A stretch of DNA of 64,000 nucleotides from Shigella phage B2. Location of the stretch: the sequence record OM858838. One strand, given 5' to 3'. Below, in pieces: positions 3-52,564 of this stretch. The notes below the pieces were generated by a model. The model did no database searches. It was not told the DNA's origin and worked only from the letters and a program-made list of their open reading frames with translations. A program made the translations under genes and the position numbers. The first letter of the stretch is position 1. Each line of letters opens with the position of its first letter.

Positions 3-962
3 ACAGTAAGGGATGATTACCGAACAGGTAAAACATTCACTGCTAAGGGCAAAAACTTTATACCTCTATCCGACACTCTCATCCTTATGGATGAATCCTC
101 AATGGCGGATACTCAACTACTGAAGTTAATCGATGAAGGTACTGCTAAAAACTGTAAGATAGTTTTTATTGGTGACCATTGTCAGTTGGCTCCAGTCTCA
201 GAAACAATGAGTCCAGTTTTCAACTCGGGCTACATTACTTCATATCTAAATACCCAAATGCGAACTAACAATAGTCCAGCATTAACTCTACTTAATGACC
301 AGTTACGTCAGACAGTAGAAACGGGTGTCTTCAGACCAATCATTCCTGTTCCCGGTGTTATCGATTTCGTTAATGACGATGAGATGCGCCGACTGATGAA
401 TGCAAATTTCATTTTGCAGGAAACTCCCGGTCATAAAATCCTAGCTTATACAAATAATGGGGTTCAAGAGTACAACTCGTACATACGAACCAAGAAGCAT
501 TTACCTCCAACTTTGATGGTAGGTGATGCTGTCGTATCAAATAACAGCATTGAAACTGCTGGTTCTCGTACCATTATCGAAAAGGTATACCGAGTACATT
601 CAATATCTGGTGTACATCATAATGATGGTATTCCTTACTACATGGTAGATATTGGAGTAGGTGGTTTAGTTAAACAACCTGTTAACTATAGCCAGTTACA
701 ACAAGCAATCAGAGAAGCAGCCAATAATAAAGATTGGGTTGAGTACTTTCGTTTAAAGAATGAATTTGCTGACTTACGGTTTGCATATGCATCTACTGTA
801 CATAAGTCTCAAGGCTCAACATTTGATACTGTCTATATCGATTTAGGTGACTTGTGCATCTGCAAGGATATGGAACAATTAGCTCGTATGCTTTATGTAG
901 CTGCCAGTCGTGCTACTACTCGTGTTGTGTTCTATGGTAATCCTCCTCACTTCATGAGGTGA
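3..962 (+). CDS. SF1 DNA helicase (Dda/RecD-like), 5'-truncated at window edge
   Basis: Frame open from nt 3 with no stop before the annotated Met at 87; motifs LILMDESSM (Walker B), IGDHCQLAPV (motif III), TVHKSQGSTFDTVYI (motif V/VI). Confidence 0.7.
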   Translation, partial: TVRDDYRTGKTFTAKGKNFIPLSDTLILMDESSMADTQLLKLIDEGTAKNCKIVFIGDHCQLAPVSETMSPVFNSGYITSYLNTQMRTNNSPALTLLNDQLRQTVETGVFRPIIPVPGVIDFVNDDEMRRLMNANFILQETPGHKILAYTNNGVQEYNSYIRTKKHLPPTLMVGDAVVSNNSIETAGSRTIIEKVYRVHSISGVHHNDGIPYYMVDIGVGGLVKQPVNYSQLQQAIREAANNKDWVEYFRLKNEFADLRFAYASTVHKSQGSTFDTVYIDLGDLCICKDMEQLARMLYVAASRATTRVVFYGNPPHFMR

Positions 963-42611: not shown

Positions 42612-44237
42612 TTAAACCAGATAACTATCTATTCCATTGGATTGGGTTGGTTCAGGCATGTCCCATATACCATCATCCTGTACACCTCCTGTAGAGCCTT
42701 GTGAGGGCTTCCATACTTTAAGACACCCTAACATACTGATGGTATCAATAAAGTCGTCATGCTTGCTCTTAAAGCCCTCTACAGTAGCTAACTGAAGCTC
42801 ATCCATAGCTTCTAACATAATCTTCTCTTCTTTGAGTTCTTCAGGGAAATACATCTTACCTGCTTTGAACCAAGGAAGAACTGAGTTGAATCTCACCATC
42901 TTATTACTATTAGGTCGAATACCCGGTCTACTGTTATTGCCATCAGAGGCAAAATTGAACCAAATATTACGAGTCATCATCTCATTCTGAAGTAGCGGGA
43001 TGAATCCACCTTGCTGACCTGTAACTTCAATGCCTACAGATTGAGGTTGGTACTCTACAACTAGTCTAAATAGGTCATCAAAGTTCTTATCCATAAGCTG
43101 GCGTCTACAAATACCATCAACCCAGAACCAATCACCATTAGAGTTGATGGCCCATACAGAAATAACTGAATAGTCAGCAGACTGTTTCTCAGAAGTAGCA
43201 AAGTCAGTAGTGATATAGAAATTAAAATGACCTCTATTCAGCAGAAGAGACTTACGCTTATACCATTGGATATCAGAATCCATGACAAGCCTCTCTTCAT
43301 CAGAGGTAATTCGTAGCATCAATTCCTGATTGAATGCAGCAACCTGTCCAGTTGATACAGCAAGGTCGTATTGCCCTTTAACGAAGTCATATGAGAAGCG
43401 GTCTTCCCAAGCTCCTACAAATTCTTCACGAGAACATGGGAATTTCTCACAAATAGGGAATACGTTTACATACCAACCACCTGATTCTACTGCTTCATAA
43501 AGAATATCGTTCTTATTAAAGGGTGTTCCACTGAAAACAATCTTTCTACGTACAGGGTCGAGAGCATAATCGACACCTTTGTACACAGTATCCTTGATTG
43601 CCTGCATAGTTGACTTAGATTTAGCATCATCATCACTAACTAAGTCATCCAATACAGCTAAAACAGGACGTTTACCAAAGATTTTAGTACCACGAAGACC
43701 TGTCTTAGCACCAAACATACGAACACCTAGCTTATGCCCATCAGCATTAGTGAATTCTAGGTATGCATCAGTGAATTTGGCTTCAGGAATGTACTTCTGA
43801 AGGAATTCAGAGTTGTTATAACGGTATTCGATATTCTTTCTAAGTGATTTTACCCCGTTCTCCATTGAGTCAGAGACATAAATCATACCTTCGATTTCAC
43901 CAAATCCATCAATCTCCCCATATAAGGCAATATACAGAACCAGATACTCACCAAATAAGGTAGTTTTAGCCATACCACGAGAACAAAGATTGGCTAATCG
44001 AGTACGTTTACCTGCTAACTCATCAAGCATTTTAAGATGAACAACAGGAGTAAGGTTAGATTCACCTGCTTCACCATTAACCATCTTGATAAAGTTCACA
44101 TAGTTAATTGCGAATACAGAAGGAACATAGTTACCGTCATTGAGAGTGCTGTAATCAACAGTATTCAGCCACTCTACAACTGACTTTTTAACCATTGGGT
44201 CTTCTTTAATCATCGACACGTTCAGATTCTCCATCAA
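42612..44237 (-). CDS. terminase large subunit
   Basis: 541 aa; Walker A-like LCSRGMAKTTL, Walker B VLAVLDDLVSDDD. Confidence 0.7.
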   Translation of the reverse strand: MMENLNVSMIKEDPMVKKSVVEWLNTVDYSTLNDGNYVPSVFAINYVNFIKMVNGEAGESNLTPVVHLKMLDELAGKRTRLANLCSRGMAKTTLFGEYLVLYIALYGEIDGFGEIEGMIYVSDSMENGVKSLRKNIEYRYNNSEFLQKYIPEAKFTDAYLEFTNADGHKLGVRMFGAKTGLRGTKIFGKRPVLAVLDDLVSDDDAKSKSTMQAIKDTVYKGVDYALDPVRRKIVFSGTPFNKNDILYEAVESGGWYVNVFPICEKFPCSREEFVGAWEDRFSYDFVKGQYDLAVSTGQVAAFNQELMLRITSDEERLVMDSDIQWYKRKSLLLNRGHFNFYITTDFATSEKQSADYSVISVWAINSNGDWFWVDGICRRQLMDKNFDDLFRLVVEYQPQSVGIEVTGQQGGFIPLLQNEMMTRNIWFNFASDGNNSRPGIRPNSNKMVRFNSVLPWFKAGKMYFPEELKEEKIMLEAMDELQLATVEGFKSKHDDFIDTISMLGCLKVWKPSQGSTGGVQDDGIWDMPEPTQSNGIDSYLV

Positions 44238-44901
44238 TTACTAACTTGGTATGAGCTACTTCTTTAGCTGAATAGACTCCGCCTTCAATCAGTTGTCGCT
44301 GCTTCGCAGCTAGCTGTGAGGTTAATTCCCTCAGTTCACTAATTACACCACCTTCCTGCAATCCAACATTAAGTTCAATCTTATTGGCTTCAGGACGTTT
44401 GAGATGATTAAGTAATGAGTTAGCTGCTTCACACTTAACCTTCTCACTTTTAGCATTAAGCATTAAATCTGCTTGAACGTTAATAGCTTTCTGAAAGATA
44501 TCAGCATTAAGAACATGAGTTGGAACCAAAGTCTGTTCATAGATAAGGTTAACTAACTTACCTTTGTTGTATGCAGATACATAACAATGAATATCTTTAG
44601 TGGAAGTACCGGAGTTCAAGAAGTTTTGATATCGGTCTGGGAAAGTTTTTATATAAGCTTCAAAGTTGGTATGTCCCATTAGTTTAAAACTGACATACTT
44701 AACTGCGGATAAGTAGTCTTCAATCTTAAACTTACCATCCTTCATTACATGGGTATAAGACATTAAGTTATCTCTCAATACTTCACCCATAATGGGGTCA
44801 GAGAGAATCTTATTAATCTTATCCATTAAATCCTGATTAACACTGCCTTTATGATTTTGAGGCATTACAGCTTTAAACTGTTCTACTGATAACTGAGTCA
44901 T
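44206..44901 (-). CDS. hypothetical protein (terminase small subunit candidate by position)
   Basis: 231-aa ORF immediately upstream of and overlapping TerL. Confidence 0.35.
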   Translation of the reverse strand: MTQLSVEQFKAVMPQNHKGSVNQDLMDKINKILSDPIMGEVLRDNLMSYTHVMKDGKFKIEDYLSAVKYVSFKLMGHTNFEAYIKTFPDRYQNFLNSGTSTKDIHCYVSAYNKGKLVNLIYEQTLVPTHVLNADIFQKAINVQADLMLNAKSEKVKCEAANSLLNHLKRPEANKIELNVGLQEGGVISELRELTSQLAAKQRQLIEGGVYSAKEVAHTKLVIDGESERVDD

Positions 44902-45106: not shown

Positions 45107-45178
45107 GGTTCTATGGTCCAGTGGAAAGGATATTCCCCTGTCACGGGAAAGGCCCGAGTTCAATTCTCGGTAGAACCG
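45107..45178 (+). tRNA. tRNA-Asp (anticodon GTC)
   Basis: Hand-folded cloverleaf: acceptor ggttcta/tagaacc, D gtcc/ggat, anticodon stem ttccc/gggaa loop ctGTCac, T ccgag-ttcaatt-ctcgg, CCA encoded. Confidence 0.8.
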
Positions 45179-45185
45179 CCAATTA

Positions 45186-45260
45186 CAGGATATAGCTCAA
45201 GTTGGTTAGAGCACTCGGCTCATAACCGAGAGTGTCCAGGTTCGAAACCGGGTGGAACCA
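45186..45260 (+). tRNA. tRNA-Met-like element (anticodon CAT), acceptor stem unresolved
   Basis: Good D arm (gctc/gagc) and anticodon arm (ctcgg-ctCATaa-ccgag); the 5' end does not pair with the 3' tggaacc-a-cca in my fold. Confidence 0.35.
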
Positions 45261-45270
45261 CCAAATAATG

Positions 45271-45355
45271 AAGAGAGTCGTATAGCGGCCCAATACGCCA
45301 CCCGAACGTTACGACTAGTACGGAGAACACGCAGGTTCGAATCCTGCCTCTCTTC
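45271..45355 (+). tRNA. tRNA-like element without canonical anticodon arm (possible pseudo-tRNA)
   Basis: Perfect 7-bp acceptor aagagag/ctctctt, D arm gtat/atac, T arm gcagg-ttcgaat-cctgc; the 33-nt middle has no 5-bp/7-nt-loop hairpin. Confidence 0.3.
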
Positions 45356-45361
45356 ACAAAT

Positions 45362-45435
45362 TGTCTCATAGCTCAGTAGGTCAGAGCGTTCCCCTGATAA
45401 GGGAAAGGTCACTAGTTCGATTCCAATTGAGACAA
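45362..45435 (+). tRNA. tRNA-Ile (anticodon GAT)
   Basis: Acceptor tgtctca/tgagaca + a + CCA, D gctc/gagc, anticodon ttccc-ctGATaa-gggaa; T stem has two mismatches. Confidence 0.6.
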
Positions 45436-45579
45436 CCATCCAATAGATTACAGTTCGTATCTCTTAGGGGAATACACTTGTAATTGCGGCCCGATAGGAA
45501 AGGGTAATTTCTCGACGATGGGAGTAGACCATTGACTGTTTGGAATAGACAACTGACGCTGTGAACGAGAACAGGAACA

Positions 45580-45666
45580 AGATGAGTCGTATAATAGGCA
45601 AATACAATATTCATGTTTCGCTATAGGCATGGAGAAGGAACGTGAGTTCGAGTCTCACCTCATCAA
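45580..45666 (+). tRNA. tRNA-like element, paralog of 45271-45355
   Basis: Shares agaNgag-tc-gtat...atac 5' half and a ttcgagt T arm (gtgag/ctcac); 1:72 mismatch and no canonical anticodon arm. Confidence 0.25.
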
Positions 45667-45766
45667 TAGTTCTTATCAGGGATTACTTACTACTATATAT
45701 CATACATTACCTCGCCTGGTGTGTTGGTGTTACCTCGGTAGATAAGTAATCCACTAATAAGAATTT

Positions 45767-45849
45767 GGAAGATTCCGCTCAGTGGTGGGCAATCCGGTTT
45801 GAACCCGGAGGTGCTGGTAACGGTAGGGGTTCGACTCCTCAATCTTCCG
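45767..45849 (+). tRNA. tRNA-Ser (anticodon TGA), type II
   Basis: Acceptor ggaagat/atcttcc + g + CCA, anticodon tccgg-ttTGAac-ccgga, long variable arm. Confidence 0.7.
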
Positions 45850-45858
45850 CCAATATTT

Positions 45859-45931
45859 GATAGGATAGCTAACTCGGTAAAGCGGCAGACTGTTAATCTG
45901 CGACATTAGGGTTCAAATCCCTATCCCATCG
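45859..45931 (+). tRNA. tRNA-Asn (anticodon GTT)
   Basis: Anticodon gcaga-ctGTTaa-tctgc, T taggg-ttcaaat-cccta, acceptor with one A.C mismatch, CCA encoded. Confidence 0.75.
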
Positions 45932-46099
45932 CCAAACTTGCAGGTAACTCTGCAATCCGTGACCAGTCGGTATGTTTATTAGTATGTAAAAGGCTGGGCT
46001 TCCTGCCTCTCATAGCCATACTCTTAAATGAATAACTGGTAGTCCAGCCAAGCGCACGAAGATGGGGACCCTCACCATCGGACAAAACGAGGGTACTAA

Positions 46100-46173
46100 G
46101 CATCCTTAGCTCAGTTGGATAGAGCAGTAGCCTTCTAAGCTATTGGTCACTGGTTCGAATCCAGTAGGGTGTA
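46100..46173 (+). tRNA. tRNA-Arg (anticodon TCT)
   Basis: D gctc/gagc, anticodon gtagc-ctTCTaa-gctat, T actgg-ttcgaat-ccagt, acceptor with two G.U pairs, CCA encoded. Confidence 0.8.
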
Positions 46174-46177
46174 CCAA

Positions 46178-46250
46178 GCTCACTAAGTTCATATGGGTGA
46201 ACGCCTGCCTTGTAAGCAGGATGAACGCGGTTCGATTCCGTGGGTGAGCA
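46178..46250 (+). tRNA. tRNA-Thr (anticodon TGT)
   Basis: Acceptor gctcact/ggtgagc, D gttc/gaac, anticodon cctgc-ctTGTaa-gcagg, T cgcgg-ttcgatt-ccgtg, CCA encoded; unusual A at position 8. Confidence 0.75.
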
Positions 46251-46255
46251 CCAAT

Positions 46256-46338
46256 GGGAGTATGGTGAAATCGGTAGACACAAGGGATTTAAAATCCCTC
46301 GGCTTATAGCTGTACGAGTTCGAGTCTCGTTACTCCCA
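46256..46338 (+). tRNA. tRNA-Leu (anticodon TAA), type II
   Basis: Acceptor gggagta/tactccc + a + CCA, anticodon aggga-ttTAAaa-tccct, long variable arm, T acgag-ttcgagt-ctcgt. Confidence 0.85.
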
Positions 46339-46363
46339 CCAAATTAATACAAGGAAAATCCCA

Positions 46364-47336: not shown

Positions 47337-47964
47337 TAAACTCAGATTGTCGTTTTACTACGACGATTGGGATAGCAAGCTGGCTCTGCTTAAACCAGCG
47401 CATAGTAATGAGAGCATTTGCAGGGGCGATGGATTGATGTTATTTAACCATGCGTGTAAGTGTTCTCTTTACTATGCTGCCATAGTAACCCGAAGATTGC
47501 TTTCCTTAGAGGAAGCAGAGTTTAAACAGGTATATCCTGTCCTGTATTGAAGGTGTAACAACTGAATATACCAGAGTACTAGAACTCTGTTACCGAACTC
47601 AGGGAGTTGCTGGCCTAACCAGCTTAACATCCTATCAATGAGTACACTTGATTGAGGTCAGAAGATGAAATGAAGCTTCTGTAAAATGAATCCACAGAGT
47701 GTACTCTTTGATAGTTTTCGTATGCGATTATGCGGTTTTTTAAAAACGAACCATAAAACATAAATGCAAACGATGATGTTGTTCTGATGGCGGCTTAACA
47801 GCCTATAAATCAGTGAGGTATTCCAGTTCCTCATAACAGAATCTGGCGCACTGGCCCGGTGTGATTAATAATGGGCAACCAATATCTCTTTAAGTGTATT
47901 GAATCAGTATATTTACAGAGATACGCGCCAAGTATATCTCACTTCCGAATACGTTGATTATTTT

Positions 47965-50121: not shown

Positions 50122-50332
50122 CTAACTACTGTCAATATGTAATTTAATACAGTACTAACTAAGGAATACCAATGAAGTTACATGATATCTTATTCATAGT
50201 ACTAGCTATTGTACTGTTTGGATTAGCAGTATATCTAAGTAAATAATTATTATTTTTTAAAGGGTTAGAGAATTTTTAATAATTACTTACCAATGTAGTA
50301 TTACTGCACACAATCTTTTATTAATCCGAATA

Positions 50333-50343
50333 CCCCCCCCCCC
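50333..50343. repeat. C11 homopolymer tract
   Basis: atac-c(11)-atac in an AT-rich intergenic region. Confidence 0.9.
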
Positions 50344-50360
50344 ATACTTCACACATCCAT

Positions 50361-50373
50361 GAGTCTTCGACTC
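50361..50373 (+). promoter_or_regulatory. TTC-loop hairpin + GTGGAG (vRNAP-type promoter candidate)
   Basis: gagtc-ttc-gactc then ta-gtggag, ~45 nt upstream of 50419 ORF. Confidence 0.4.
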
Positions 50374-50418
50374 TAGTGGAGCAATGGTGCTCTACTTAAT
50401 CATGATTAGGAGTATGTT

Positions 50419-50760
50419 ATGAAACCTGTTAACTCTATCGGTATCTTCGGTGCTGTATCTTCCTCAACTGTATCTGCATTGAATGCAATTGAACGTGGTG
50501 CAGTAGCTGTAGCCAATACTGCCAACATGGCTGTAGCTGTTACTGAATGGGGCAATGATGAAATCGAGAACCTTCGTCATCACCGTGCTATCAAACGTGA
50601 GGTAGAGGGTGAAATCTTCCGTACTAAATATGTTATGGAAGCTGCTAAAGAAGTAGCAGAAGTACATGCAGAAGCAGAGAAATCCATGAAGGATGCATCA
50701 CCAGAGGTTAAAGCAGTGTTCGATGCACTGGTAGCCAAACATTTGGGTAACAAGAAATAA
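50419..50760 (+). CDS. hypothetical early protein
   Basis: 113-aa ORF with AGGAG RBS. Confidence 0.45.
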   Translation: MKPVNSIGIFGAVSSSTVSALNAIERGAVAVANTANMAVAVTEWGNDEIENLRHHRAIKREVEGEIFRTKYVMEAAKEVAEVHAEAEKSMKDASPEVKAVFDALVAKHLGNKK

Positions 50761-51173
50761 TCACTAAGGCTCAAGGATGAGCCAAGGAACAATTATGTTA
50801 ATCAACATTGAAATTATTATCCGTAAACTAAAGTGCAAAGCAATCTATCATCTGAATGTTATTGCTCTACATGCATACGCTAAAGGTCTACGTACCTCCG
50901 GTAATATTACATCAGTAGCTGTACGGTATGTACGTATCAAAACCATATCTTCATCACTGTAATCAATCTCTTACCTCTGGCTAATGCTGGAGGTCAAGAG
51001 CAAATCACACATTACACATATGATAGATAGTATGTATATATTACCAGTGTATAAACATACACCATGCTGTAACGCTCTAGGAAGCTCTACAAGAGGTTTT
51101 GAGAAGAGGTAATAGGGTAGGAGAGTTGATACTATTCTATCTCAATCTAGGTAGCATTGAGGACTTATATTGC

Positions 51174-52453: not shown

Positions 52454-52470
52454 ATCACCGTCTTCGACGG
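52454..52470 (+). promoter_or_regulatory. TTC-loop hairpin + GTGGAG (vRNAP-type promoter candidate)
   Basis: caccgtc-ttc-gacggtg followed immediately by gtggag. Confidence 0.45.
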
Positions 52471-52506
52471 TGGTGGAGTTCTCCCTTAAGTTCTCCTTCT
52501 CCTGTA

Positions 52507-52521
52507 AGAGCGACTTCGTCG
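52507..52521 (+). promoter_or_regulatory. TTC-loop hairpin + GGTGGA (vRNAP-type promoter candidate)
   Basis: agcgac-ttc-gtcgct followed by ggtggaa; ~45 nt upstream of 52565 ORF. Confidence 0.45.
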
Positions 52522-52564
52522 CTGGTGGAATAATCCAATTCAATTAACTATCGAGGTAATTATC

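Follow-up and report, generated by a model that had tools for sequence, protein, structure and literature searches.

[quoted passage not shown]

The poly-C tract of Shigella phage B2 and its surroundings

We analysed a 64,000-nt stretch of DNA of Shigella phage B2 (sequence record OM858838; hereafter the window), which has a G+C content of 39.6%. By megablast the window is 97% identical to the Salmonella phages SP154, FSL SP-058 and FSL SP-076 (Ithacavirus), and, judged from its sequence, it is that of an N4-like podophage (Schitoviridae, Humphriesvirinae, Ithacavirus). The gene for the terminase large subunit (TerL), which has thousands of homologues carrying PF17289, adjoins an ORF that likely encodes the terminase small subunit (Table 1); the gene beside TerL bears that label in some related records, and PHROGs assigned no function to this 230-aa ORF or to the other ORFs near the tract described below. 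The first early ORF, on the other side of the tract, has no detectable similarity to N4 gp1, and searches with it in phage genomes and IMG/VR returned close relatives only. After it had failed to reach distant relatives, TerL was taken as the anchor for these.

An earlier note on this DNA had described the 44.9-50.4 kb stretch as noncoding, which was incorrect: 7-8 tRNA genes and several ORFs lie within it. ARAGORN identified seven tRNA genes (Asp, Ile, Ser, Asn, Arg, Thr and Leu) at 45107-46341, and Rfam added an eighth tRNA-like match at 45188-45260. Weak, sub-threshold Rfam matches of the tmRNA type (alpha_tmRNA, E=0.0006; permuted tmRNA, E=0.006) are present at 47697-47852, in an apparently non-coding stretch upstream of a 464-aa ORF, and ARAGORN predicted no tmRNA.

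The tract itself consists of exactly 11 C on the + strand at 50333-50343, in the context ...ccgaataCCCCCCCCCCCatacttcacacatccatGAGTCttcGACTCtagtgg..., and the region from 50326 to 50373 reads ccgaata-C11-atacttcacacatccat-GAGTCttcGACTC. It is the sole homopolymer of at least 8 of any base in the 64 kb window, the longest other C runs being two of 6, and G runs of at least 6 do not occur. By chance, an i.i.d. model predicts 0.0009 C runs of at least 11 per 64 kb and a first-order Markov model predicts 0.0006, and the earlier note's description of the run as atypical of this genome is borne out. The tract is non-coding, with a small ORF on one side and, 75 nt downstream on the other, the ATG at 50419. 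A promoter-like hairpin had been noted ∼18 nt downstream of the run; the hairpin, at 50361-50373, is indeed promoter-like, and the actual gap is 17 nt.

We found no sign of a conventional RNA or promoter element at the tract. A search of 44-52 kb against Rfam, with hits accepted to E=1, returned only tRNAs and sub-threshold noise, with no match at the tract. In DNA folds of nt 50303-50420 the tract was unpaired on both strands (z-scores of -1.3 and -0.1 against shuffles, neither of them significant), and the fold contained two hairpins downstream of the tract and no others. Scans for sigma-70 promoters and for terminators gave counts equal to the shuffle expectation, and no sigma-70-like pair or terminator spanned the tract.

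Table 1. Coordinates of features in the window (positions in the window; ends and boundaries predicted) and of poly-C runs in reference genomes (nt counted from the left end)
Genome	Feature	Position	Strand	Remarks
Window	TerL	42612-44237	-	65% identical to N4 gp68
Window	230-aa ORF, likely terminase small subunit	44206-44901	-	adjoins TerL; proposed trans-acting partner
Window	A/T-rich box GAATTTTTAATAATTAC	50270-50286	+	far side of the cut; family consensus gaaAtTTTTnATAgtTAtGT
Window	Cut-site motif GTAGTATT	50295-50302	+	predicted left end directly after; family consensus TGcAGTgt
Window	Terminal box ACTGCACACA	50303-50312	+	predicted first bases of mature genome; direct repeat of 50346-50355
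Window	C11 tract	50333-50343	+	nt 31-41 (or 32-42) of mature genome, from predicted end
Window	Second box ACTTCACACA	50346-50355	+	kept in Ithaca-, Pollock-, Pylas- and Triduovirus relatives
Window	P1 hairpin GAGTC-TTC-GACTC	50361-50373	+	candidate virion-RNAP early promoter; template-strand loop GAA
Window	Second stem-loop	50375-50396	+	predicted 5′ end of P1 transcript; nine-pair stem in DNA fold
Window	First early ORF (113 aa)	50419-50760	+	gp1 position; from ORF list; phrog_5020, unknown function; within predicted terminal repeat
Window	Predicted right repeat boundary TAATAGGGTA	51110-51119	+	placed by homology to As2, Pollock and Pylas
N4	C9	32-40		no alignable sequence to the window there
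LIT1	C7	30-36		end by direct sequencing stop
CB4	C6	31-36		end from annotated repeat
Pylas	C11	starts at 31		end by PhageTerm
Pollock	C11	starts at 33		end from annotated repeat
Zuri	C7	33-39		end from annotated repeat
IME11	C7	33-39		end by read pile-ups (PMC3896407)
phiAxp-3	C7	34-40		end by run-off sequencing (PMC4837373)
Presley	CCCTCCCCC	41-49		interrupted, further in; end from annotated repeat

The early promoters of N4 that are used by its virion RNA polymerase (vRNAP) have a 5-7 bp stem, a 3-nt loop and a central purine on the template strand, and are defined by the hairpin together with the sequences from -17 to +1 (PMC4496689). The predicted P1 hairpin, just inside the left end, fits this definition, and N4 P1 is of the same form (GTTGC-TTC-GCAAC at ∼nt 90-102). 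A C-TTC-G triloop hairpin with a downstream (A/G)GTGGA is common to this candidate (50361-50373) and to two others, at 52456-52472 and 52509-52523. The same three were recovered independently by a repeat finder, as family D1. Perfect hairpins with a stem of at least 5 bp and a C-TTC-G triloop number ten between 44298 and 62202, with TTC on the + strand in 10 of 10 and GAA in none; the hairpin at 62186-62202 is followed by a T run and is terminator-like. The second stem-loop starts at or beside the predicted +1 of the P1 transcript, as it does in distant relatives, so that the first early RNA would carry a conserved hairpin at its 5′ end. Hairpins of the GGACATGTTGTCC type occupy the equivalent position after P1 in N4 (107-119) and Zuri (106-118).

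A C run was absent at the promoter candidates at 52456 and 52509 and at N4 P2. Moreover, the first hairpin lies anywhere from 5 to 74 nt from the run in different members of the family, compared with 30-34 nt from the run to the end. Because this distance varies and two promoter candidates lack a C run, the tract is not tied to the promoter, and we conclude that it is not an N4 vRNAP early-promoter element.

Position of the run relative to the genome end

The Salmonella phage As2 has 97% identity to the window; its record opens at the base that corresponds to window position 50302 and carries an exact 616-bp terminal repeat at both of its ends; for this reason we placed the left end of the present genome at 50302/50303. 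The 769-bp repeat predicted by PhageTerm for the Klebsiella phage Pylas has a start that aligns to window 50303, and that of the annotated 610-bp terminal repeat of the Escherichia phage Pollock aligns to 50301; both of these repeats start ∼30 nt upstream of an identical C11 run. The final bases of the N4 and Pylas records, directly before their left ends, are ...AGTATT. The left physical end of the present genome is thus predicted to lie 30-31 nt upstream of the tract, with the window holding one copy of the repeat.

The right boundary of the repeat is always at (A)ATAGGG(TA) in As2, Pollock and Pylas, and the direct terminal repeat of the present genome is predicted to extend from 50302 to ∼51119. 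The window contains ∼200 nt (∼50770-51000, including an ORF at 50777-50962) that are absent from As2 (460-500), so that the repeat would be ∼818 bp here compared with 616 bp in As2. The region of the first ORF falls within the annotated repeats of Pollock and Pylas. The boundary sequence AATAGGGTA is common to the window, As2, Pollock and Pylas. This right-end boundary has no C run, and the tract is therefore not required for every terminase cut. A second copy of the ATAGATAGTATGT...CAGTGTAT motif is found at 51021-51053, near the right boundary inside the repeat, and no C run follows it.

The region of the tract is 93-98% identical to SP154, FSL SP-058, FSL SP-076, As2 and S5. Ithaca-, Pollock-, Pylas- and Triduovirus genomes all have a run of 9-11 C at the corresponding position, the preceding 30 nt having diverged. 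Among deposited genomes that are otherwise 95-99% identical the tract length is 9, 10 or 11, a variation to which sequencing error may contribute. Orthologous runs of C6-C11, on the same strand, the one with its 5′ end at the left terminus, start at nt 30-34 in N4, IME11, LIT1, phiAxp-3, Zuri, CB4, Pylas and Pollock (Table 1). The termini of the reference genomes had been mapped by a mixture of methods, and OLIVR1 and V12 were left out because their records begin away from the physical end.

The strand of the run was examined in 80 TerL-anchored IMG/VR loci (61-92% identity to the query), in which runs of at least 7 were found 52 times on the early-sense strand and 3 times on the other (binomial p ∼1.5e-12, a value that treats the loci as independent and ignores kinship). 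Among the loci that had 6.5 kb or more of sequence beyond TerL on the relevant side, a run of at least 6 was nearly always present (21 of 23 loci); one of the two exceptions excludes the junction, and the other, the long locus L045, shows no run. From these sequence comparisons we conclude that the terminal repeats of the N4-like family share the poly-C run as a conserved element with a fixed strand, and that nearly all N4-like phages have this poly-C signal ∼30 bases inside the left end. The earlier note had suggested that the run could be a remnant of a genome end or packaging site and that the termini should lie within 44.9-50.4 kb. By homology an end is indeed nearby, and the left end falls in that interval; the right repeat boundary (∼51119) is outside it, and a conserved strand-specific repeat element is not a remnant.

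The records of the Salmonella phages UTK0001 and UTK0002 have a terminus (nt 1 in one, the last base in the other) exactly at the C run, and so does one IMG/VR contig (L048, nt 1-8). This suggests that assemblies tend to break at the C homopolymer beside the physical end.

A composite site across the cut and its possible functions

To describe the surroundings of the run we used an ungapped alignment of 47 distinct sequences anchored on it. Conserved columns were an A/T-rich stretch from -62 to -47, (C/T)AGTGT at ∼-40 to -35, TA directly before the run, GGTA directly after it, and a CCCC box at +30. In a MAFFT alignment of 45 distinct junctions the consensus was gaaAtTTTTnATAgtTAtGT-n5-TGcAGTgt, then the cut, then ∼30 nt, then aAAgTA-C7-ggTAc, with almost no indels. 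The A/T box is at a fixed distance (∼-62 to -47) from the C run in these 45 junctions, and the run is rigidly spaced both from this box and from the (C/T)AGT(A/G)T(T) motif beyond the cut. Conserved motifs thus flank the cut at fixed spacing, and the site, like a T7/T3-type pac site, spans the repeat boundary. Because the motifs lie beyond the cut, the composite is contiguous only in concatemers or just before the right-hand copy of the repeat.

We also considered other readings of these flanking elements. The A/T box is found once in the window and is therefore not a repeated or generic promoter motif; its interpretation as a repeated middle promoter was dropped on account of this single occurrence. 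Boxes of the CACAC/TACAC type are present on either side of the C run in most relatives. In nt 1-75 of N4, the terminal GGTGGGGCTACAC recurs in inverted form (GTGTAGCC ... CCCCACC) beyond the C9 run, and N4-type relatives commonly have a CCCC(ACC) box ∼30 nt beyond the run, which the window group lacks. The N4 arrangement suggested that the tract might be a loop between terminal inverted repeats. The flanking boxes of the window group are direct, so this idea is not general, and it was rejected.

We judge the chances to be about even that the C11 tract is the core, or registration element, of a conserved pac-type site at the concatemer junction that determines where the unique left end is cut. 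The packaging machinery would recognise or sense the poly(dC).poly(dG) tract, the candidate sensors being the small or large subunit of terminase or the motor/portal as packaging finishes, and the tract would serve as a ruler, setting the cut at a distance of three helical turns (30-34 bp) and giving N4-like phages their unique left end. [quoted passage not shown] Were the left end packaged last, the motor would reach the tract with ∼30 bp still to go to the cut, which makes a stop-and-cut signal the most economical version of the proposal. Differences in length (9-11 here, 6-7 in many relatives) would represent tolerated slippage above a minimum length and not a switch. Mature DNA retains the tract at its left end, however, and a role later than packaging, in ejection, early transcription or replication, is equally conceivable.

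More speculatively, and in our estimation improbably, poly(dC).poly(dG) at a fixed 25-34 bp from the left end could be an ancient signal, common to the short-terminal-repeat podophages of Schitoviridae and Autographiviridae, that is read mechanically by the motor or portal. What is sensed, either the run of G on the strand that bears the load or a stiff, A-philic segment, would then bring about stop-and-cut and/or retention of the end, and the tract would not be an ordinary sequence-specific protein-binding site. If true, such mechanical reading would explain why conservation is confined to the homopolymer, to the strand it is on and to how far it lies from the end, amid diverged surroundings.

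The main rival, to which we give some weight while thinking it unlikely, is that the tract anchors the leading end by binding an ejected virion protein (the N- or C-terminal domains of vRNAP, or homologues of gp51/gp52) or a host protein. The bound end would topologically constrain the first few hundred bp, permitting supercoiling by gyrase and hence extrusion of the P1 hairpin. This accords with the literature on N4, in which the early promoters need gyrase-driven hairpin extrusion despite the linear genome and no anchor is named, and with the tract being found between the end and P1 in all the genomes examined. However, an anchor leaves unexplained the rigidly spaced motifs beyond the cut, which are not beside the tract once the left end has been injected; a comparable tract is present in T7-like phages, which do not use supercoil-extruded hairpin promoters; and the distance from tract to P1 is not conserved. 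A role in replication of the bottom-strand G run, ∼30 nt from the 3′ end of that strand, as a pause, priming or strand-exchange signal during duplication of the terminal repeat or recombination of ends into concatemers, appears decidedly improbable. Concatemers of terminal-repeat phages contain one repeat per junction, so a second copy must be synthesised (PMC10438801), and this need, like the fit of strand specificity to a polar process such as DNA synthesis, speaks for such a role. Beyond strand polarity nothing fits it specifically: the tract has no predicted structure, and its fixed distance from the cut is more simply explained by the cutting enzyme. Against it also, we know of no primase or polymerase signal of the poly-C kind.

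The earlier note had further raised a slippage-prone switch and an assembly artefact. Length variation does exist, at 9, 10 or 11 among genomes 95-99% identical, and the tract is only 17 nt from a promoter hairpin, but we attach very little probability to changes in length that modulate expression from P1 or of gp1 or that generate subpopulations. The tract is outside any ORF and does not separate promoter elements, two other promoter candidates lack it, its distance to the hairpin ranges over 5-74 nt, and the length differences may be homopolymer sequencing error, with two records and one contig breaking at the run. As for an artefact or a functionless chance homopolymer, homopolymers are error-prone and some assemblies do break at the run; nevertheless we regard this reading as refuted by conservation across genomes and grant it virtually no credence. 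Genomes of four genera, each sequenced independently, share this tract of 9-11 C at one and the same position, and N4, sequenced in the Sanger era, has C9 at the equivalent position, for which reason an artefact is rejected; chance would supply ∼0.001 such runs and does not account for the 52:3 strand bias. We conclude that the tract is genuine, and that both the artefact and the remnant interpretation fail.

Long homopolymers in these phages have been remarked upon before. Fouts et al. (2013) reported that N4-like phages have the longest homopolymers, their 'significance not clear', and a paper on Yersinia T7-like phages gives variable poly-C stretches in the repeats without comment. In the full-text literature we found no paper that gives the constant spacing to the end, the strand rule or the composite site, or that assigns a function to the run, in N4 or elsewhere, and an older mention is possible. 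The tract and the motifs across the cut make up a precisely delimited candidate site of ∼90 bp that could be mutated, moved or carried on a plasmid. For annotation, the comparisons provide a rule, namely that the left end of an N4-like genome lies 30-34 nt upstream of its only long C run (25-29 nt in T7-like genomes), which allows permuted assemblies such as OM858838 to be re-opened correctly and accounts for the breaks at the run. If the same signal does operate in both Schitoviridae and Autographiviridae, the two families would seem to form their ends by a common mechanism, which may be mechanical.

Comparison with N4, T7-like phages, lambda and contingency loci

N4 and the window have the same order of parts: left end, C run, hairpin promoter, 5′ transcript hairpin and first ORF, and in both the junction reads ...AGTATT followed by the end. 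The terminal 100 nt of N4 cannot be aligned to the window except for the run and short motifs, and the first ORFs are not detectably related. The distance from run to promoter is 17 nt in the window and 49 nt in N4, and the boxes flanking the N4 run are inverted (GGCTACAC ... GTGTAGCC) whereas those of the window are direct repeats.

A similar run is found in T7-like phages. All nine Autographiviridae examined, from several subfamilies (T7, T3, gh-1, SP6, K1-5, phiKMV, LUZ19, KP34 and Syn5), contain T-C4-8-(A/G)TAGG(G), which begins at nt 25-29 and has the strand of the N4-like run (C5 at 26-30 in T7, C8 at 26-33 in T3, and runs at 25-33 in the seven others). T7 and T3 resemble the window phage in being podophages with short direct terminal repeats, in having the left end enter first and in having a C run fixed near that end; T3 reads AAGTA-C8-ATAG where the window reads GAATA-C11-ATAC. 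The two groups differ in the offset of the run (25-29 nt in T7-like and 30-34 nt in N4-like phages) and in its continuation, which is (A/G)TAGG(G) in T7-like and GGTA or ATAC in N4-like phages. By this analogy, it is possible that T-C4-8-(A/G)TAGG is a shared terminal signal of short-terminal-repeat podophages. One account of T7 packaging describes two cis sites at the concatemer junction, PacB, which the small terminase binds, and PacC, which the large terminase cuts (PMC9860248). The likeness of the N4-like tract to PacB/PacC of T7/T3 is one of position only.

The N4-like site and lambda cos are alike in being composite and in spanning the cut. In lambda, the elements of cos (cosQ-cosN-cosB) are at fixed distances from the nick sites and govern the initiation and termination of packaging; cosQ is a short element that the translocating motor meets before the cut, and it is needed for the termination cut. 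The systems differ in that lambda has 12-nt cohesive ends, no terminal repeat and a terminase of another lineage, and its site has no sequence resemblance to that of the window. Bacterial contingency loci are like the tract in being G/C homopolymers of ∼10 whose length varies between close relatives. Unlike them, the tract lies outside a reading frame and outside a sigma-70 spacer, and its position is kept relative to the end of the DNA and not relative to a gene.
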